NCBI GenBank assembly: GCA_039934135.1
Contig: JBDTMT010000022.1
Span: forward strand, 1-21,506
Origin: a bacterium
Lineage (GTDB): Bacteria; Desulfobacterota; Binatia; HRBIN30; CADEER01
Direction: 5' to 3'
Length of the DNA: 21,506 bases
Positions 1-16,690 of this stretch are shown in pieces (within the stretch, counting starts at the first letter, position 1; every line of letters starts with the position of its first letter). The position numbers and the translations under genes were made by a program. The notes beneath the pieces were generated by a model that was not told the origin of the DNA, made no database searches, and saw only the letters and a program-made list of their open reading frames with translations.

Positions 1-226
1 GAGGCAGCCAACCCCGACTTCGGCACCGGTTATGTCGTCGCCATTCCCGGCGGCAGCCCGGCGCGCTGCAACCCGATCAGCGCCGGGCCGGCCTGCCGCG
101 ATGCCGGGCTGGAGCGCTTGCCGTGACCCGACGCGCGACGCGGCGCGCCGGTGCGCATCGCCAACCGCTGGCGTGCCGGTCGCTGCGGTTGCCGCGCCGC
201 GCGTCCGCCTGCTAGCGGCTGCCCCT

Positions 227-1144
227 ATGCCCATGCTCGACGCCAACGGTCTGCGCCTCGCCTACGAAGAGTTCGGAGACCGGCAGCAGACGCCGATGCT
301 GCTGATCATGGGGCTCGGCGCCCAGATGATCCTGTGGCGCGACGAGTTCTGCCGCCAGCTGGCGGCACGCGGCTACCGCGTCGTCCGATTCGATAACCGC
401 GACATGGGCGAGTCGACGCGGCTGGACGAGCTCGGCGTGCCGAACCTGCTCGGCATCTTGGCCGCGGCGATGACACAGCAGCCGATCGACGCGCCCTATC
501 TGCTGCGCGACATGGCGGATGACAGCGTCGGCGTGCTCGACGCGCTCGACATCGCCAGCGCCCACGTCGTCGGCGCCTCGATGGGCGGCATGATCGCCCA
601 GTGCATGGCCATCCAGCATCCGACGCGCGTGCGCTCGCTGACGTCGATCATGTCGACGACCGGCAATCGCGCCCTGCCGCCGCCGCGCCCGGAAGTCGCC
701 AGCGTGCTGATGACCGCGCCGCCCAGCACTCGCGACGCGGCGATCGAGCATGGCGTACATGTCTACCGCACCATCGGCAGCCCCGGCTTCCCGTTCGACG
801 AAGCCGAGGTGCGCGGTCTCGCGACGCGCAGTTACGACCGCGGTTTCAACCCCGCCGGCGTCGCCCGCCAACTGGCGGCCATCGTCGCCTCGGGCAGTCG
901 CGTCGAGGCGCTGCGCGAGCTGCGCCTGCCGGCGCTTGTCGTGCACGGCACCGACGACCCACTGGTGCCGTTCGCCGCCGCCGAGGATACGGTGGCCAAC
1001 ATTCCGGGCGCCGAGCTGTTGGCCATCGAGGGCATGGGACACGACATGCCGCACGCCGTCTGGCCGCGCTTGATCGACGCCATCTGCCGCGTCGCGGCGC
1101 GGGCGGACGCGGCACAGGCCGCCGCCGCACGCGCCACCGCGTAA
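227..1144 (+). CDS. alpha/beta-fold hydrolase (serine hydrolase). The start is probably an internal ATG at 227 (MPMLDANGLRLAYEEFGD...); the ORF itself extends back to 32.
   Basis: The translation has the alpha/beta hydrolase architecture: an LLIMGLGAQ oxyanion-region motif, a GASMGG nucleophile elbow (G-x-S-x-G) and a C-terminal HGTDDPLVP...GMGHDMPH catalytic Asp/His region. The N-terminal 65 residues of the ORF are Arg/Ala-rich and look non-native. Third-position GC is high. No clear Shine-Dalgarno sequence is visible. Confidence 0.8.
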   Translation: MPMLDANGLRLAYEEFGDRQQTPMLLIMGLGAQMILWRDEFCRQLAARGYRVVRFDNRDMGESTRLDELGVPNLLGILAAAMTQQPIDAPYLLRDMADDSVGVLDALDIASAHVVGASMGGMIAQCMAIQHPTRVRSLTSIMSTTGNRALPPPRPEVASVLMTAPPSTRDAAIEHGVHVYRTIGSPGFPFDEAEVRGLATRSYDRGFNPAGVARQLAAIVASGSRVEALRELRLPALVVHGTDDPLVPFAAAEDTVANIPGAELLAIEGMGHDMPHAVWPRLIDAICRVAARADAAQAAAARATA

Positions 1145-1231: not shown

Positions 1232-2218
1232 ATGAAGCGCGCAGGGATCGCTGCCGTGGCGGCAGCTGTCATCGTCGGCGGACTGGCGCTGTGGTACGGC
1301 GCGCCCGTCGAGCCGGCGCACACGCTGCCGGCGCTGCCGGTACGACAGGCGGACAGCGGCAGCCCGAGTCTCGCCGGCGCGGCGCATCAGAATACGGCGC
1401 GAGCGCCGGCCGCGCCGCCGCCCGGACGCGGCGCGGCAGGGCCTGTCGCCGATCAATCGGGCGGCGCGCCTCACGGCGCCGGCGGGTCGGCCGCCGCGCC
1501 GCCCAACCCGCCGAGCGATGCCGCCGCGCGCATTGCCAACGGCGCCGCGCACGGCCCGCCGCCAACCGCGCCGCCGGTGCCGACGGTGGGTCCGCCGCAG
1601 GCGCCGGCCACAGCCGCCGCGCCGTCAGACGACGGCGACGGCAGCGCACCACCCACGGAGCCACTGTACGAGTTGGTCTTCGACGGCGGCGCCGATCGCG
1701 TCTTCCCGACCGACTCGCAGGAGCAGATCAACGCCCGCCGCATGCCCGGCGGCGCCGGCAGCATCCAGTTCTGGCTCATGCCGGAGTGGGATGCGGGCAA
1801 TCAGGACGCCGCAACGCTGGTGCAACTCGGCGACAGCGGCATGGAGATCGTCAAGGACGGCGACGCGTTGCGCTTTCGCTTTCACGACACGACCGGCGCC
1901 GACAACAGCGTCGACGCCTACCTCGCGGACTGGGCTCCCAATCAATGGCGCCACGTCACCGCCACGTGGCTCGGCTCGCAGCTCAATCTCTATGTGGATG
2001 GGCAGCTGGTGGCGCAGAACACTTTCGCCACGGCGCCGGACTTCGGCCAACAGACCAACATCTCCGTCGGCTCCGCGTTCCCCGGCGGCGAGCCCGCCGC
2101 GCGCTCATCCATTGTCGGCCTGCACATCTTGAACCGCGACCTCAACCCGCACGAGATCGCCGAGATGCTCCACGGCGTCGCGCCGCCGCGTATCAATCCC
2201 GCCGCCCCCGCGCCCTAG
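1232..2218 (+). CDS. Membrane-anchored protein with a Pro/Ala/Gly-rich low-complexity linker and a C-terminal LamG-like (concanavalin A-like lectin/glucanase, Laminin_G_3-type) domain.
   Basis: The N-terminal hydrophobic segment IAAVAAAVIVGGLALWY looks like a signal anchor. About 140 aa of PPxAP-type low complexity follow. The C-terminal ~180 aa carry the jellyroll signature (WxH...Q.NLYVDGQLV...) typical of LamG-like domains. Codon bias is consistent with a real gene. A GGGGA RBS-like sequence sits upstream of the ATG. Confidence 0.8.
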   Translation: MKRAGIAAVAAAVIVGGLALWYGAPVEPAHTLPALPVRQADSGSPSLAGAAHQNTARAPAAPPPGRGAAGPVADQSGGAPHGAGGSAAAPPNPPSDAAARIANGAAHGPPPTAPPVPTVGPPQAPATAAAPSDDGDGSAPPTEPLYELVFDGGADRVFPTDSQEQINARRMPGGAGSIQFWLMPEWDAGNQDAATLVQLGDSGMEIVKDGDALRFRFHDTTGADNSVDAYLADWAPNQWRHVTATWLGSQLNLYVDGQLVAQNTFATAPDFGQQTNISVGSAFPGGEPAARSSIVGLHILNRDLNPHEIAEMLHGVAPPRINPAAPAP

Positions 2219-2841
2219 GTGGGCAAACGCGGCCCGCGCAGGCGCGGCTCGGCGACCACCAGCGTCCAGGGGAATGACGTGACGCAGCGATGGACGCGCA
2301 GCTCCGCTCCGACGAACGTCGCGAACTGCCGCCTCGACCAGTGCTGGACGTGGCCGGGGTCGTTGCCGAACGCCGCGACGTTCTTGCCGCGCAGAACATT
2401 CGCCAGGCGGAAGTACGGCTCGTGCGGAACCGTGCACACGACGTAGCGGCGCGCCACACGGCCAAGCTCGCGCAGCCCGTCCGCCGGCTGCGGGAGATGT
2501 TCGAGCACCTCGGTGGTGAGCACGACATCGAAGGCCGCGTCGGCATACGGCAGTCGCGTGACGTCGGCGCAGACCCGCGGCACGCCGGCGGGAAAGACGC
2601 CGGCGAATAGCAGCGCCGACAGCTCCCGATCCGTGGCGATGAGCCGCGCTGCACCGACGTGGGGCGCGAGACGCGCCAGGGTGAACCCCTCGCCGCTGCC
2701 GGCGTCGAGCAAGGTTTCAAACTCGAGCTCGCGCAGCAGCCCGATCAGTGTGGCGTAGAAGCGGTCGATGAGCAGTCGCTGCAGCGGATTGGTCGAGGTG
2801 TGCTTCCTGGCGTTGTCGGACAGGCCAGGCGCACTAGCCAT
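2215..2841 (-). CDS. Class I SAM-dependent methyltransferase (small, 208 aa).
   Basis: It has the motif I LLDAGSGEG (a Rossmann SAM-binding G-x-G-x-G), an acidic post-motif (TDRE) and a VLTTEVLEHL motif consistent with class I methyltransferases. The start ATG at 2841 overlaps the upstream GT2 stop by 8 nt (ATGGCTAG). The stop shares a CTAG with the convergent LamG gene stop. Confidence 0.8.
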   Translation of the reverse strand: MASAPGLSDNARKHTSTNPLQRLLIDRFYATLIGLLRELEFETLLDAGSGEGFTLARLAPHVGAARLIATDRELSALLFAGVFPAGVPRVCADVTRLPYADAAFDVVLTTEVLEHLPQPADGLRELGRVARRYVVCTVPHEPYFRLANVLRGKNVAAFGNDPGHVQHWSRRQFATFVGAELRVHRCVTSFPWTLVVAEPRLRGPRLPT

Positions 2842-3796
2842 GCGAGACTCGGCGCGCAGGGCGCGCGACGGGCGTGTACTCTTCGCATAGGGCAGCGTTG
2901 TGCGGCGGGCTCGCGGCGCGGCGCTGCTCGGCGAGCAGGCCGGCGACCAGGCATTGCCCCATCAGCACGACGATCACCCCGGCGAGCGCCGCTAGCCAGA
3001 CGCCGCTGAGGTGCACCACGCCGAGCCGGTCGAGCCCCAGCGCGGCTATGCACAGCAGCGCCGCCGCCCCCGCGCCGCTCAGCGCCAGGACGGCGAAGAA
3101 GTGCAACGGTCGATCGCGATAGCGGGTCAGCAGCAGCACGGTCAGCAGATCGAGCAGCGCCTTCGGTAAGCGGGTGCCCCCGTACTTCGAGGCGCCGTGC
3201 CGCCGCGGACTGTGGCGCACGTCGATCTCGCCGATGCGCGCGCCGAGCCCCTGAGCGAAAACCGGGATGAAGCGATGCAGTTCGCCGTACGGATGCAGTT
3301 GTTCGATCAGCTCGCGGCGGTAGGCCTTGTAGCCGCAGTTGACGTCGTGCAGCGGCACGCCGAAGACGCGCCGCACAACGGCGTTGAACAGCCGCGAGGC
3401 GACGACCTTGCCGCGCCGATCCCGGCGCAGGCGTTTGCGGCCCGAGACCAGGTCGAACCCGGCGTCGATGGCCGCGACAAAGCGCGGCAATTCGGCTGGA
3501 TCGTCCTGCAGATCCGCATCCATCGTCACGACCACATCGCCGCGCGCCGCGGCGAACCCGGCCGCCAGAGCGGCGGCCTTGCCGTTGTGCGTGCGCAGGC
3601 GCAGCACCCGCACGCGCGCGTCGACGTCGGCCAGCGCCCGCAGGGCCTCGAGCGAGCCGTCGCTGCTGCCGTCGTCGACGAAGAGGATTTCCGACTCGCC
3701 ACCCAGCCCGTCGAGCGCCAACCCCAGTTGCGCGGCGAGCGGCGCCAGGCTGCGGCGCTCGTTGAACAGCGGAATGACGATGCTGAGCACATTCAT
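2834..3796 (-). CDS. GT2-family polyprenyl-phosphate glycosyltransferase (ArnC / GtrB / DPM1-like) with two C-terminal transmembrane (TM) helices.
   Basis: It carries the signatures VIPLFNE, ILFVDDGSSDGS and TMDADLQDDP (the DxD-type catalytic motif of ArnC/DPM1-like enzymes) plus GRKRLRRDRRGK. The C-terminal hydrophobic helices (FFAVLALSGAGAAALLCIAALGL...VVLMGQCLVAGLL) match the GtrB/ArnC architecture. The start is taken as the internal ATG at 3796, which forms an ATGA overlap with the stop of the upstream membrane-protein gene. The ORF itself extends to 3838. Confidence 0.85.
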   Translation of the reverse strand: MNVLSIVIPLFNERRSLAPLAAQLGLALDGLGGESEILFVDDGSSDGSLEALRALADVDARVRVLRLRTHNGKAAALAAGFAAARGDVVVTMDADLQDDPAELPRFVAAIDAGFDLVSGRKRLRRDRRGKVVASRLFNAVVRRVFGVPLHDVNCGYKAYRRELIEQLHPYGELHRFIPVFAQGLGARIGEIDVRHSPRRHGASKYGGTRLPKALLDLLTVLLLTRYRDRPLHFFAVLALSGAGAAALLCIAALGLDRLGVVHLSGVWLAALAGVIVVLMGQCLVAGLLAEQRRAASPPHNAALCEEYTPVARPARRVSHG

Positions 3797-5466
3797 GGCG
3801 GATTGCCGCCTTCTGCCGCGTCGCGCCGCGGTGGGCAAGGCGGCGGCAGGCCGTTCGGCCAGGGTTGCGGTGTGTCGGCGGTGCGCAGGGCGCGCACGGG
3901 AATGGCGCCGAAGCGGCCGATTTCGACGTAGGCGCTGTCGATGTACGCGATGATGCGCGCCGAGTACGCGGCGAAGAGCCGATCCTCGCGGTTGTCGAGC
4001 ATGCGCGAGCCGTCGCCGAGCACCAGCGGCACGTGTTGGCGGCGCACCGTGTCGATCCAGCGCTGCTGGTCCGCCTCGGTGCTGAAGAAGCCCGGCGACC
4101 AGGCCGGCTGTGCGCCGCCGAAGCGTCGGTCGGAGAAGTAGTAGGCGCCGATCAGCGGCGGCAGGGCGATGAGGTGATCACCCGCCTCGGTGCAGCGGCG
4201 CACGTACTGAATCGCCTGCACCAGCGTGTCGGCGGGATTCTCCGCCGTCAGCTGCGCCAGCAGTGCGTCGCGCGGCATGGCGTGCACGCGCCACGCGCGC
4301 AGGCCGGCGCCGGCGTTGGGGCTCGGCCAGCCGCTCATGCCCATGGCCGCCCGGAGCCCGACCATGAGCACGCCGCCGAGCACCACCGTAGCCGCGATCG
4401 CCCATGCGGTTGCCCGGCCGCGCCGCGCTGCCGCGGCCGACCAGATACGTCCGGCGAACCAGGCGCAGAGCACGAAGCAGAGCGCGATCGCCTGCAACAG
4501 GTGGGTGTAGTCGGAGCGATGCGCCGCATGCATCAACACGGCCTGCGCCATGACGGCTGCCGTCGCCAGGCGTCGCCGTTCGGCGACGGCGCGGCAGACA
4601 CCGGGCCACAGTGCCGCGACCAGCGCGAGCGGCGGCAACGCGTAGAAGCTGACGAAGAGCAGGAAGGTCGCGTTGGCTGGCGCGGCCAGCGGCTTCGTCC
4701 CGTCGAACGATGGGAAGGGCAGCGCCATGCCACTGGCGTGGCGCGGTCCATTGATCAACGTGTCGGCGATGTAGGTGCCGAGCCCACCGCGCCACGCCAA
4801 CCAGATCAGCCACGGCGCCGCCCAGACCGCGACCAACGCGGCGAGCTGCGCCAGGCGGAGCGCGGGCCGACTCGCCGGCCCGGGTCGACTCGCGACCGCG
4901 ACCGCGGCGCCGAGGCCCGTGAAAGCGCCGAAGTCGGCGCGAAACAACGCCGTCGCCGCGACGGCCGCGGCGAGCAGCCACAGCGAGCGAGGCGACGGCC
5001 GCTCGATCTCACGCCACGCCGCCCACAGGCAGACCACCGGACCGAGCACGGCGTAGTACTTGTACAGACGCGGCGCGAGCACCAACGCGACAAACAACAG
5101 CAGCGCGGCGATTACTCTGCTGCCGCCGGCGATCCACATGAGGCGGAACAACACCGCATACGCGAGGCTGTACGCGGCGCTGACCAGGCACAGATCGGCG
5201 AGCGGACAGGCGCCCAACAGCCATTGCGCCAGCGCGCTCGGGTAGTAACGCAGCGGACCGTAGTCGGTGTGCCAGTCGACGAACGGGTACTCGCCGTGCA
5301 GGATCTGATTCGCCCCGCCGAGCTGGTGGACCCAATCGCCGTCGATCGCCAGCACCGCCGGCGTCGGCCAGCGCAGCGCCATCCAGACCAGCGTGATCAG
5401 CGCCACCACCAGCAGCGTGCGCACGACGCGCGACGTCGATTCGGAATCGAGAAGCGACGCGCTCAT
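3793..5466 (-). CDS. Polytopic integral membrane protein, putative GT-C-type glycosyltransferase (ArnT/PMT_2-like), partner of the adjacent GT2 enzyme.
   Basis: There are at least 10 predicted hydrophobic helices, for example LLVVALITLVWMAL, VIAALLLFVALVLAPRLY, LWLLAAAVAATALF and FLLFVSFYALPPLALVAAL. A candidate acidic loop motif (AIDGDW) sits in the first extracytoplasmic loop. The C-terminal ~150 aa form a soluble domain. The start is chosen at the ATG at 5466 (MSASLLDSES...) because a GAGG sits upstream and because the ORF's upstream extension to 5724 would overlap the GST gene ending at 5525. The stop overlaps the GT2 start (ATGA). Confidence 0.7.
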   Translation of the reverse strand: MSASLLDSESTSRVVRTLLVVALITLVWMALRWPTPAVLAIDGDWVHQLGGANQILHGEYPFVDWHTDYGPLRYYPSALAQWLLGACPLADLCLVSAAYSLAYAVLFRLMWIAGGSRVIAALLLFVALVLAPRLYKYYAVLGPVVCLWAAWREIERPSPRSLWLLAAAVAATALFRADFGAFTGLGAAVAVASRPGPASRPALRLAQLAALVAVWAAPWLIWLAWRGGLGTYIADTLINGPRHASGMALPFPSFDGTKPLAAPANATFLLFVSFYALPPLALVAALWPGVCRAVAERRRLATAAVMAQAVLMHAAHRSDYTHLLQAIALCFVLCAWFAGRIWSAAAARRGRATAWAIAATVVLGGVLMVGLRAAMGMSGWPSPNAGAGLRAWRVHAMPRDALLAQLTAENPADTLVQAIQYVRRCTEAGDHLIALPPLIGAYYFSDRRFGGAQPAWSPGFFSTEADQQRWIDTVRRQHVPLVLGDGSRMLDNREDRLFAAYSARIIAYIDSAYVEIGRFGAIPVRALRTADTPQPWPNGLPPPCPPRRDAAEGGNPP

Positions 5467-5524: not shown

Positions 5525-6154
5525 TCACGCGGCGGCCGCGGGCGTCGGACTGGTCGACTGCACCGCCGGACGAGCTCGCAGACGCTCGACCCAGGCCCGC
5601 ACCGCCGGCCGCGGCTCGAGCAGATGTGCCAGCCCACACGCGGCCAATTCACAGACCAGCGGCGCATAGGCGACATCGGCCAGCGAGAAGGTGCCGACGA
5701 TGTAGTCGCCGCGCCCGAGCACACCTTCCAACACGTCGAGGTGCTCGCCGAGCTCGTCAGCGGCGCGCGCCTGATCGTCGCGGTCCCACGCCGACTCGGG
5801 CAGGAACAGGCGCGTCAGCCAACGCTTGAAGGGCGGCGCGAAGTAGTCGCCCGAGGCGAGCATCCACTGCCGCACCTGCGCCCGTTGCGCCGCATCGGCC
5901 GGCAACAGCGCCGGTAGCGGATGGCGCTCTTCGAGGTACTCGAGGACCGCCAGCGACTCGCAGATGACCAGACCGTCGTCCTCCAGCACCGGCACCTGGC
6001 CAAACGGATTCAGCCGCCGGAAGGCCGCGCCGCGCGTCGCGCCACCCGGCAGGTCGACCTCAACCTCCTCACAGGCGATGCCCTTCTCGCGTACCGCAAT
6101 GCGCACGCGACGCGGGAACAGCGAAAACGGATGCCAGTGCAGGCGCATGACCAT
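5525..6154 (-). CDS. Glutathione S-transferase (GST).
   Basis: It has the N-terminal thioredoxin-like GST domain (MRLHWHPFSLFPRRVRIAVREKGI...FGQVPVLEDDGLVICESLAVLEYLEE) and the C-terminal alpha-helical GST domain. Confidence 0.85.
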   Translation of the reverse strand: MVMRLHWHPFSLFPRRVRIAVREKGIACEEVEVDLPGGATRGAAFRRLNPFGQVPVLEDDGLVICESLAVLEYLEERHPLPALLPADAAQRAQVRQWMLASGDYFAPPFKRWLTRLFLPESAWDRDDQARAADELGEHLDVLEGVLGRGDYIVGTFSLADVAYAPLVCELAACGLAHLLEPRPAVRAWVERLRARPAVQSTSPTPAAAA

Positions 6155-6223: not shown

Positions 6224-6639
6224 TCACGACCGGCAACGGCGGCATCGCGTTGCCGGGAGGCGCTCAGGCGCCGAGACGTTCGCCGCACCGAGCAGCACGA
6301 AGACGTAGTACAGCGGCAGAATACGCAGCGGGCGGCGCACAAAGAACCGATGTACGACGGGAACCGCCCGGCGCGGACCGCCTGGATGAACGGCAAGCTG
6401 AGCAGGAAGCTGCTGAGCACGAAAAGCAGATCGACGCCGAAACCGCCGCCGACACGCACGAAGGCCACCAGCGGCGAGATCCACGTCCCGGTCGGGTTGC
6501 AGCCCCAACACACGAAGCCGTCGGTGTGGAAGGCGAGCACCATCAGCATGGCAATGCCGCGCATGCCTTCCATTTCGGCCAGGTACGGCGTCGACACCGC
6601 CGCCGACCGCGCGCTCGCCGCCGCCCTGGTCCTGCTCAA
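6224..6639 (-). pseudogene. Remnant of an acyltransferase-3 family (OafA/YrhL-like) membrane acyltransferase gene, frameshifted and truncated to the N-terminal ~130 aa.
   Basis: ORF 6166-6639 encodes the family N-terminus (MEGMRGIAMLMVLAFHTDG...GGFGVDLLFVLSSFLLSLPFI). The next conserved block (FFVRRPLRILPLYYVFVLL, the RRxxRIxPxY motif) appears only in a different frame, in the C-terminal part of ORF 6224-6916, and then hits a stop at 6224. Full-length family members are about 350-400 aa with ~10 TM helices. This argues for a frameshift near 6310-6350 plus a 3' truncation. Confidence 0.55.
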
Positions 6640-6935
6640 CCGCAGGCAGCGCGGCTCGCCCCGTGTCGACCGACATACGCAACGTGCCTAAACCTGGAGG
6701 CCGCCAGCGGGGCAAGCGGCGGGAACTGCGCAAGGCCGGCGACCCTGCGCGCCCGTAGCTCGACAACTTCCGGCCCCCCCACCGTCGGGGCGTAACGGGC
6801 AGTGCCTGGCCGCGCGACCAGCTACGGACGACGCGGAGTCGAGAGGGGGCACGTGCCGGATCGGAACGCCGCGCAGGCGGATCCGAGCGCCAGAGACGTG
6901 TGGCCGATCGCCGCACGTGCGCCCGTTGTTCCGTC

Positions 6936-10531
<3,596 letters not shown>

Positions 10532-16081: not shown

Positions 16082-16690
16082 TCAGGCCGCGGCGCTCGGC
16101 CGCTGCTTGAACGCGGCGTGCCAGCGACCGACGTTCTGCAGGCCGGGATCGACGGGGATCTCGGCGAAGGCGGCCATCTCCAGTGCCGCGAACAGCGTGC
16201 AGTCGGCAATCGTCGGCTGCGCACCGCAGACGAAGGGCTGGTTGCCGATCTTGGCGTCCAGGACCTTCAGGTTGGTCGCCAGGCGCAGCCGGCCCTGCTC
16301 GGCGGCATCGGCTGACTGCTTCACTCGGGCGGCGAAGAACGCGTGCGTGTTCTGGAACACCGTCGCGATGCCGAACAGCACGCCGAGCTCGCAGATGCGC
16401 TCGGTGGCGCGCACCCGCGCGCGCTCCACGGCGCTGGTGCCGAGCATCGGCGGCGTCGGATGCAGCTCCTCGAGGTACTCGATGATCGCCAGTGATTCGG
16501 TCAGGTGACTGCCGTCGTCGAGTTGCAAGACCGGCAGACCGCCGAGCGGGTTCTTCTGCAGAAAATCGGGCTTGCGGTTGGCGCCATTCATCACGTCGAC
16601 CTGCTCGACGGGGATCTCCAGACCCTTCTCAGCCAGATAGACGCGCACCTTCTTCGGATTCGGGGCCAGGGCGAAGTCATAGAGTTTCAT
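16082..16690 (-). CDS. Glutathione S-transferase.
   Basis: It has the N-terminal GST thioredoxin-like domain (MKLYDFALAPNPKKVRVYLAEKGLEIPVEQVDVMNGANRKPDFLQKNPLGGLPVLQLDDGSHLTESLAIIEYLEE) and the C-terminal helical domain. A strong RBS, AAGGAGG, lies 7 nt upstream of the ATG. Confidence 0.85.
   Translation of the reverse strand: MKLYDFALAPNPKKVRVYLAEKGLEIPVEQVDVMNGANRKPDFLQKNPLGGLPVLQLDDGSHLTESLAIIEYLEELHPTPPMLGTSAVERARVRATERICELGVLFGIATVFQNTHAFFAARVKQSADAAEQGRLRLATNLKVLDAKIGNQPFVCGAQPTIADCTLFAALEMAAFAEIPVDPGLQNVGRWHAAFKQRPSAAA

Follow-up and report, generated by a model that had tools for sequence, protein, structure and literature searches.

A predicted lipid-carrier-dependent extracytoplasmic glycosylation module around a GT-C-fold membrane protein of an undescribed family in a Binatia contig

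Lipopolysaccharide (LPS), cell-wall glycans, and glycoproteins are built or decorated by GT-C enzymes, and new areas of glycobiology have opened with each family discovered, GT136 being a recent one. In the GtrA/GtrB/GtrC systems of O-antigen glucosylation and in the GT136 pentofuranose systems, a GT2 polyprenyl-phosphate sugar synthase is clustered with a GT-C enzyme of the periplasmic face (PMC11127046). The ArnC/ArnD/ArnE-F/ArnT pathway, which modifies lipid A with 4-amino-4-deoxy-L-arabinose (Ara4N), is the precedent for a lipid-linked monosaccharide that is tailored at the cytoplasmic face, by deformylation or deacetylation, before flipping. FlmF2/NaxD/FlmK and LgmA/LgmC/LgmB are analogous systems. 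AglP, of the Haloferax volcanii N-glycosylation pathway, reportedly performs the S-adenosylmethionine (SAM)-dependent methylation of a hexuronic acid in a dolichol-phosphate-bound oligosaccharide, which AglB then transfers. In streptococci, GtrB works with a partner glycosyltransferase (PgtC2, or the Pgf machinery) to add sugars to disordered linkers that membrane proteins expose outside the cytoplasm (PMC12041528; PMC5856776). Here, we describe a locus in contig JBDTMT010000022.1 (assembly GCA_039934135.1), a whole contig of a metagenome-assembled genome (MAG), 21.5 kb long with a G+C content of ~70%, whose proteins have their closest relatives in Candidatus Binatia and "Deltaproteobacteria" MAGs; "the window" refers to this entire contig. 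Three minus-strand genes encode a polytopic membrane protein (MEM), a GT2-family glycosyltransferase (GT2), and a SAM-dependent methyltransferase (MT). With moderate confidence, we interpret them as a lipid-carrier-dependent extracytoplasmic glycosylation module of the Gtr/Arn/Pgf kind, organized around a GT-C enzyme of an undescribed family, and the trio probably attaches a sugar, possibly methylated, to a target exposed at the outer surface of the cell membrane.

The MEM gene (positions 3793-5466, minus strand) encodes a 557 amino acid putative GT-C-fold membrane glycosyltransferase with ~11 transmembrane (TM) helices and a C-terminal soluble domain predicted to be periplasmic. The GT2 gene (2834-3796, minus strand) encodes a 320 amino acid predicted polyprenyl-phosphate glycosyltransferase of the ArnC/GtrB/DPMS type, and the MT gene (2215-2841, minus strand) a 208 amino acid class I SAM-dependent methyltransferase predicted to be cytoplasmic. 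The starts chosen for these genes give the same products as the NCBI annotation (557, 320, and 208 amino acids). The coordinates and overlaps described in the original prediction can be read directly in the sequence: MEM and GT2 share an ATGA (3793-3796, minus strand; MEM stop TGA at 3793-3795, GT2 ATG at 3796-3794), and GT2 and MT share the 8 nt ATGGCTAG (2834-2841, minus strand; GT2 stop TAG at 2836-2834, MT ATG at 2841-2839). Start/stop overlaps are frequent in operons and prove little by themselves. The MEM-GT2-MT arrangement is not accidental, because the gene set recurs in unrelated genomes (see below).

GT2 harbors the Pfam domain Glycos_transf_2 (PF00535, 1e-29), the motifs FVDDGSSDGS (residues 39-48) and TMDADLQDDP (residues 91-100, nt 3497-3526), and a C-terminal TM hairpin composed of hydrophobic segments at residues ~233-261 and 270-288 (nt 2933-3100). 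Its matches to solved proteins include ArnC (1.8e-47, across residues 4-290), GtrB sll0501 (5e-22), and archaeal DPMS (2e-20), and it also matches PgfS (115 bits). The combination of a GT-A domain, a DxD motif, a TM hairpin, and full-length homology identifies GT2, at the level of sequence, as a polyprenyl-phosphate glycosyltransferase of the ArnC/GtrB/DPM1 type that had been proposed for it. By the same comparisons it is not an ArnC orthologue, because it scores 170.5 bits against the ArnC equivalog of NCBIfam (NF007986, cutoff 529), thousands of unnamed GT2 proteins are nearer to it than ArnC (~50% identity), and no arn genes (no arnA, arnB, arnD, or deacetylase gene) are present on the 21.5-kb contig. 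No GT2-MT fusion was detected among the top 120 GT2 homologues.

The MEM sequence has no match in Pfam or NCBIfam, and its profile has none among PDB sequences. Its AlphaFold2 model (built from 22 homologues) is confident (pLDDT 87.3, pTM 0.89) and has ~11 TM helices, after which residues ~379-557 form a soluble domain. A Foldseek search with this model returned GT-C enzymes throughout ranks 1-14, in a list headed by AftA, ArnT, DPY19, OST, ALG12, and PglB; ArnT is the second-best match (TM-score 0.50/0.51), and the scores of Pmt4, AglB, and ALG3 are about equal to it. A polytopic domain within the range of 7-13 TM helices that superposes on solved GT-C enzymes places MEM in the GT-C superfamily, in agreement with the assignment first made from its helices and soluble C-terminus. 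That MEM could instead be a transporter, as the original prediction had allowed, or, like PIG-U/GAB1, a GT-C-like scaffold that lacks catalytic activity, is hardly credible: transporters reached TM-scores of at most 0.16 and probabilities of at most 0.3, the higher-ranking fold matches are all active glycosyltransferases, the acidic loop residues and R176/D178 (see below) are conserved, and a MEM-type domain is fused to a GT2 domain in the metagenomic protein P0163. The ArnT match, along with ArnC being the best named sequence match of GT2, would fit an ArnC/ArnT-like modification of lipid A or the LPS core, in which a cationic sugar is added for antimicrobial-peptide resistance. We consider this very unlikely, since GT2 stays at 170 bits against a cutoff of 529 and has thousands of closer unnamed relatives, arnA/B/D and deacetylase genes are missing from the contig, Pfam gives no PMT_2/ArnT match for MEM, and Pmt4, AglB, and ALG3 fit its fold about as well as ArnT does.

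The first extracytoplasmic loop of MEM (residues 32-87; 5206-5373, minus strand) carries the motif D42-x-D44-W-x-H-Q-L ... G-E59-H-P-F-x-D64 ... Y-G-P and is a candidate catalytic or donor-binding loop; in ArnT, D55 and D158 line the donor site. This motif is near-invariant in alignment A1, where E59 does not vary and the conservation of D42, D44, and D64 reaches 90% or more. In alignment A2, which comprises 61 sequences with a mean identity of 30%, the same level of 90% or more holds for G58, P61, D64, G70, and P71, and the majority consensus reads DxD. The conserved acidic residues lie in the first extracytoplasmic loop, and its position directly past TM1 agrees with the GT-C convention (PMC11127046). 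The sole invariant residues across the broad family are R176 and D178 of the element R176-A-D178 (4933-4941, minus strand), located between the AlphaFold2 helices 159-175 and 177-192. The C-terminal soluble domain (residues 379-557; 3796-4332, minus strand) has a conserved Cys425/Cys544 pair and a WSPGFF motif (residues 456-461). As simple loop counts under the positive-inside rule were not decisive, the topology given here is drawn from analogy with the GT-C fold.

MEM could not be placed in a known GT-C sequence family. Neither PF02366 nor PF13231 (PMT/PMT_2) matched it above the gathering threshold, sub-threshold PMT_2 matches occur in 4 of the 61 family members (best E 6e-4), and hhalign comparison of the MEM family with a PMT_2 protein gave a weak probability of 33%. 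For DUF2079 (PF09852) there was no Pfam match and an hhalign probability of 1%, and the WWDxG motif of GT66 (PglB/AglB/STT3) was not found in the C-terminal globular domain. Thus, of the fold and profile comparisons suggested at the outset, those of fold succeeded, with ArnT and other GT-C structures superposing on the model, whereas those of profile gave a weak result for PMT_2 and none for DUF2079. In this analysis we found no Pfam model, solved structure, or characterized member for the family, and both model and sequence point to a GT-C enzyme of an undescribed family, separate by sequence from PMT/PMT_2 and DUF2079. The family is large, with 2767 representative clusters at E <=1e-3 and 460 at E <=1e-30 in an exhaustive profile search, and has members in cultured cyanobacteria, such as a homologue in Coleofasciculus sp. 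FACHB-542 (WP_206754030.1); the metagenome scan was run with a narrower alignment, the 61-member one being too divergent. Two further membrane proteins were rejected as relatives of MEM: a 582 amino acid protein of Candidatus Kaiserbacteria (hhalign probability 6%) and a 557 amino acid neighbor in locus L005 (hhalign negative).

To evaluate the module, we surveyed gene neighborhoods of MEM homologues, which yielded 18 informative contexts; the full trio was present in eight. The order MEM-GT2-MT is found in the window, in its closest relative (L001, with duplicate contigs), and in L004/L011, L008, and L031. The trio of L031 (4733-9709; MEM 45% identical to that of the window) lies between a Y1 transposase gene and a fragment of a DDE transposase gene, and this bracketing suggests that the three genes are able to move as a unit. 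The remaining trio loci are arranged as GT2-MT-MT-MEM in Nitrospirota (L010), GT2-epimerase-MT-MEM in Planctomycetota (L012), and DUF2079-GT2-MT-GNAT-DegT...MEM (L028). The survey of orthologues proposed originally therefore bears out the trio, in related and unrelated genomes alike, but not a LamG partner, which accompanies it only in L001 and its duplicates.

A more direct connection between two of the components is provided by the 790 amino acid metagenomic proteins P0163/P0176 (JGI, Logan), in which a GT2 catalytic domain (residues 7-262) is fused to a MEM-type GT-C domain (residues 250-777). This fusion, labeled at JGI as a dolichyl-phosphate beta-glucosyltransferase, is a Rosetta-stone link from GT2 to MEM. 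Together with the overlapping GT2 gene, it is an indirect cue that MEM may use a polyprenyl-phosphate-linked sugar as donor.

Other MEM-side and GT2-side loci show different combinations. L021 (6026-9593) contains two tandem MEM paralogues (35-37% identical to the window MEM) and a convergent NAD-dependent epimerase/dehydratase gene. In Candidatus Methylomirabilis (L036/L037:4202-6939), the gene of a close GT2 orthologue (50% identity) shares 4 nt with that of a 600 amino acid TMTC_DUF1736 and TPR protein, which we read, from a weak TMTC match, as a putative GT-C enzyme; no methyltransferase is present at this locus, and the same GT2 subfamily appears to work also with GT-C partners that lack an MT. 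A glycoside hydrolase family 8 gene is found near MEM in two differing contexts (L001:14669-17477, where it adjoins a second LamG paralogue, and the P0022 contig), which hints weakly at a connection with a beta-glucan-type polysaccharide; the window ends before the region equivalent to this L001 locus. The 507/508 amino acid proteins encoded downstream in L004, L006, and L036 were considered as a shared partner and rejected, as they are unrelated.

MT matches Methyltransf_11 (Pfam, 1.7e-13) and also Methyltransf_25/23/12/31, and has the SAM motif I LDAGSGEG (residues 45-52, nt 2686-2709) of class I SAM-dependent methyltransferases. One hydrophobic stretch (residues 74-92, Kyte-Doolittle mean 1.58, against a segment cutoff of 1.5) lies within the methyltransferase domain and is taken not to span the membrane. 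MT is thus read as a soluble protein whose expected site of action is the cytoplasm, the compartment that supplies SAM. Among PDB sequences its best matches, both weak, are to the D-glucose O-methyltransferase 6uv6 (1e-7) and to 3bus (6e-6, listed as "Methyltransferase"), which we take to be the sugar O-methyltransferase RebM. The match to MftM of NCBIfam is likewise weak (35.5 bits, cutoff 200).

A search with MT retrieved 574 homologues, and a GT2 and/or GT-C gene was present in all four of the neighborhoods sampled from this side (MT homologues with 45-52% identity). In Chloroflexaceae (L032), GT2 is divergent from MT and 34% identical to the window GT2. The Candidatus Kaiserbacteria cluster (L033:4064-10033) encodes GT2, MT, the 582 amino acid polytopic protein (no Pfam match), a UbiA-family prenyltransferase, a HAD phosphatase, and a NAD-dependent epimerase, an assembly that resembles decaprenyl-phosphoribose/pentofuranose donor pathways. 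Gemmataceae (L034) have the pair PMT_2-MT, and a fourth locus, from a MAG (L035:110-8477), has tandem copies of MT (289 or 204 amino acids), LPG_synthase_TM, and DUF2079, with one GT2 gene between the copies. The GT2 proteins of L033 and L035 are 42-46% identical to that of the window, and the MT-side GT2s score 265-288 bits against the GT2 profile. From the MEM side, MT stands next to GT2 or GT-C genes in eight contexts covering at least five phyla and three GT-C families. The small methyltransferase had been singled out as departing from classical layouts, and its recurrence from both sides shows that it is a real module part and not a passenger. Since homologues of MT and GT2 adjoin differing GT-C families in the MEM-side and MT-side contexts, the GT2-MT pair behaves as a cassette that joins up with three or more distinct GT-C families.

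A narrower account, to which we assign a low but appreciable probability, is that GT2 and MEM form a two-enzyme pair and that MT methylates some other target, such as a lipid, a small molecule unconnected with the pathway, or an acceptor glycan while it is being assembled in the cytoplasm. The similarity of MT is indeed generic, extending to phosphatidylethanolamine N-methyltransferase (1.5e-5) and to homologues with UbiE/UbiG-type names; L005 and L030 have MT 2-4 kb from MEM without GT2; and the Methylomirabilis GT2 orthologue is coupled to its TMTC/TPR GT-C protein with no MT. Against this account stand the 8-nt overlap of MT with GT2 and the placement of the MT family beside GT2 and/or GT-C genes in the four MT-side neighborhoods and the eight MEM-side contexts, a recurrence across phyla and GT-C families that fits a role tied to the shared lipid-linked donor better than one tied to varying acceptors. 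The reading kept here is the one in which MT acts on the donor of the glycosylation module.

In that module, donor synthesis, which is strongly supported by homology, would be carried out by GT2 on the cytoplasmic side of the inner membrane, with a nucleotide sugar as the source of the single sugar loaded onto polyprenyl (undecaprenyl) phosphate. MT could methylate this donor, acting either on the nucleotide-sugar precursor or on the polyprenyl-phosphate sugar that has yet to be flipped; it would act in the cytoplasm only, because SAM is available there. This tailoring step is modeled on ArnD, NaxD, and DprE1/E2, and on AglP for methylation. A flippase encoded outside the contig would move the donor to the periplasmic face, where MEM, whose fold is shown by the model, would pass the sugar to a periplasmic acceptor by means of the D42/D44, E59, and D64 loop and R176/D178. 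It is possible, although we advance it only tentatively, that GT2-MT forms a portable cassette whose product, a methylated polyprenyl-phosphate sugar, is a hitherto undescribed kind of donor used by several unrelated GT-C families (the new family, PMT_2, and DUF2079) in Binatia, Nitrospirota, Planctomycetota, Chloroflexota, and candidate phyla radiation bacteria. If true, envelope glycans or proteins would acquire O-methyl sugars outside the cytoplasm, in a compartment that lacks SAM, by a route that is general and has gone unrecognized. In any case, the recurrent cassette suggests a directly testable explanation of how methylated sugars come to lie on the membrane's outer face; the practical impact is limited for now, the organism being uncultured.

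Several observations weigh against the module as a whole. The contig has no flippase gene (GtrA, SMR, or MATE), MEM being the only open reading frame with at least three hydrophobic segments among those of at least 70 amino acids in the 21.5 kb, so that the dedicated small flippase gene typical of Gtr clusters is missing here. The trio is absent from 10 of the 18 informative MEM contexts: MEM occurs with MT but without GT2 in L005 and L030, with GT2 but without a recognizable MT in L014, with a divergent PMT_2 neighbor in L006 and L029, and alone or with unrelated genes in five further contexts. The MTs of the distant clusters L010, L012, and L028 are weakly similar to that of the window (E 4e-5 to 0.13) and may be analogous rather than orthologous. 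What MT has in common with sugar O-methyltransferases does not extend beyond the generic SAM-binding core (the PDB matches span residues 26-138). Finally, apart from the fusion protein, the sampled MEM homologues that bear a name are called "hypothetical protein", and most bear none. With regard to the flippase, the MprF-like LPG_synthase_TM protein of L035 is a candidate for the function missing from the window.

The region upstream of MEM bears on the acceptor. The first ~91 codons of an O-acyltransferase gene (Acyl_transf_3) remain at 6281-6549 (minus strand), with a frameshift near 6355-6361, and tblastn with the L001 acyltransferase aligned two adjacent pieces of the window in different frames (63 and 70% identity). 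The rest of this gene has been replaced by a glutathione S-transferase gene (5525-6154, minus strand), for which an origin as a recent copy of the second glutathione S-transferase gene of the window (16082-16690) was rejected, given 34% identity. In L001, the intact acyltransferase gene (6841-8004) runs 4 nt into the start of MEM, which is why the ancestral operon was probably acyltransferase-MEM-GT2-MT. Because this O-acyltransferase belongs to the probable ancestral operon and to that of the closest relative, a glycan-decorating role is favored, and the acceptor is more likely an envelope glycan.

The original prediction had instead proposed the convergent neighbor of MT as the acceptor. This gene (1232-2218, plus strand) encodes a 328 amino acid LamG/ConA-like protein with a single N-terminal hydrophobic segment (residues 4-22), a linker of ~138 amino acids, and a Laminin_G_3 domain (PF13385, residues 161-310; 3e-19, 70 bits versus a cutoff of 27.6). 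The CTAG said to be common to both stops is present (2215-2218; LamG stop TAG at 2216-2218, MT stop at 2217-2215), without functional weight. A protein O-glycosylation system in which the GT-C enzyme modifies this membrane-anchored protein on its Pro/Ala-rich linker would have a precedent in streptococcal GtrB/PgtC2 and Pgf (PMC12041528; PMC5856776), and the PgfS match of GT2, the N-terminal anchor and long disordered linker of LamG, and its retention in the closest relative all accord with it. We nevertheless judge it unlikely. LamG adjoins the module only in L001 and its duplicate contigs, where the alpha/beta hydrolase and DnaE (90% identical) are also kept; as the whole neighborhood is conserved there, the adjacency is ordinary shared synteny and does not indicate a functional link. 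It is absent from all other trio-bearing loci (L004, L008, L010, L012, L028, and L031), and its gene, being convergent, is not co-transcribed with the module. The linker is rich in Pro, Ala, and Gly (58%), as had been noted for Pro and Ala, but its supposed likeness to segments O-glycosylated by GT-C enzymes is not supported, as Ser and Thr make up only 11%; the corresponding disordered regions of streptococci are described as Ser/Thr-rich (PMC12041528). Nor is the linker conserved in the orthologue, where tblastn aligns residues 130-328 only. LamG is therefore probably not part of the module, and its role as substrate is unsupported.

Two other genes of the window were noted. The alpha/beta hydrolase gene (32-1144, plus strand), which adjoins LamG here and is kept beside it in L001, encodes a protein resembling macrolide esterase families (EstT/EstX-like; NF052610, 207 bits versus a cutoff of 420). 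At the other end of the contig (20170-21426, plus strand) lies an encapsulin shell protein gene (Linocin_M18, 4e-84), whose longest open reading frame has a ~150 amino acid N-terminal extension that may merely reflect an upstream GTG.

Among described systems, the Arn pathway offers the GT2 nearest to that of the window among solved structures (ArnC) and a GT-C fold close to that of MEM (ArnT). The window differs in that its tailoring enzyme would be a methyltransferase, Ara4N biosynthesis genes are lacking, GT2 is below the ArnC equivalog cutoff, and MEM is without an ArnT/PMT_2 Pfam match. AglP is a precedent for cytoplasmic-side methylation of a lipid-linked glycan before transfer by a GT-C enzyme, whereas the substrate here would be a polyprenyl-phosphate monosaccharide, and in bacteria. 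In Shigella phages, the O-acyltransferase Oac accompanies Gtr, and an O-acyltransferase likewise accompanies the module in the closest relative of the window. Pmt4 of the Ppm1/PMT (GT39) systems is a top fold match of MEM, GT2 matches PgfS of the streptococcal GtrB/PgtC2 and PgfS/PgfM1/PgfE/PgfM2 systems (PMC12041528; PMC5856776), and the distant MEM-family clusters L012, L014, and L021 include a NAD-dependent epimerase, as Pgf does; unlike these systems, MEM shows neither PMT/PMT_2 membership nor a MIR domain, the candidate linker is Ser/Thr-poor, and a methyltransferase is present. Our literature search, whose coverage was incomplete and is no proof of novelty, found no description of a module combining GT-C, polyprenyl-phosphate, and methyltransferase functions, or of DUF2079 with a methyltransferase. 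The Gtr and GT136 systems share with the window the clustering of a GT2 polyprenyl-phosphate sugar synthase with a GT-C enzyme of the periplasmic face; the window has a SAM methyltransferase gene instead of a GtrA, MATE, or SMR flippase gene, and its GT-C enzyme comes from another sequence family, one without a name. Systems of this kind are already known (PMC11127046); the novelty lies in the GT-C family, the recurrent methyltransferase, and the absence of a linked flippase.

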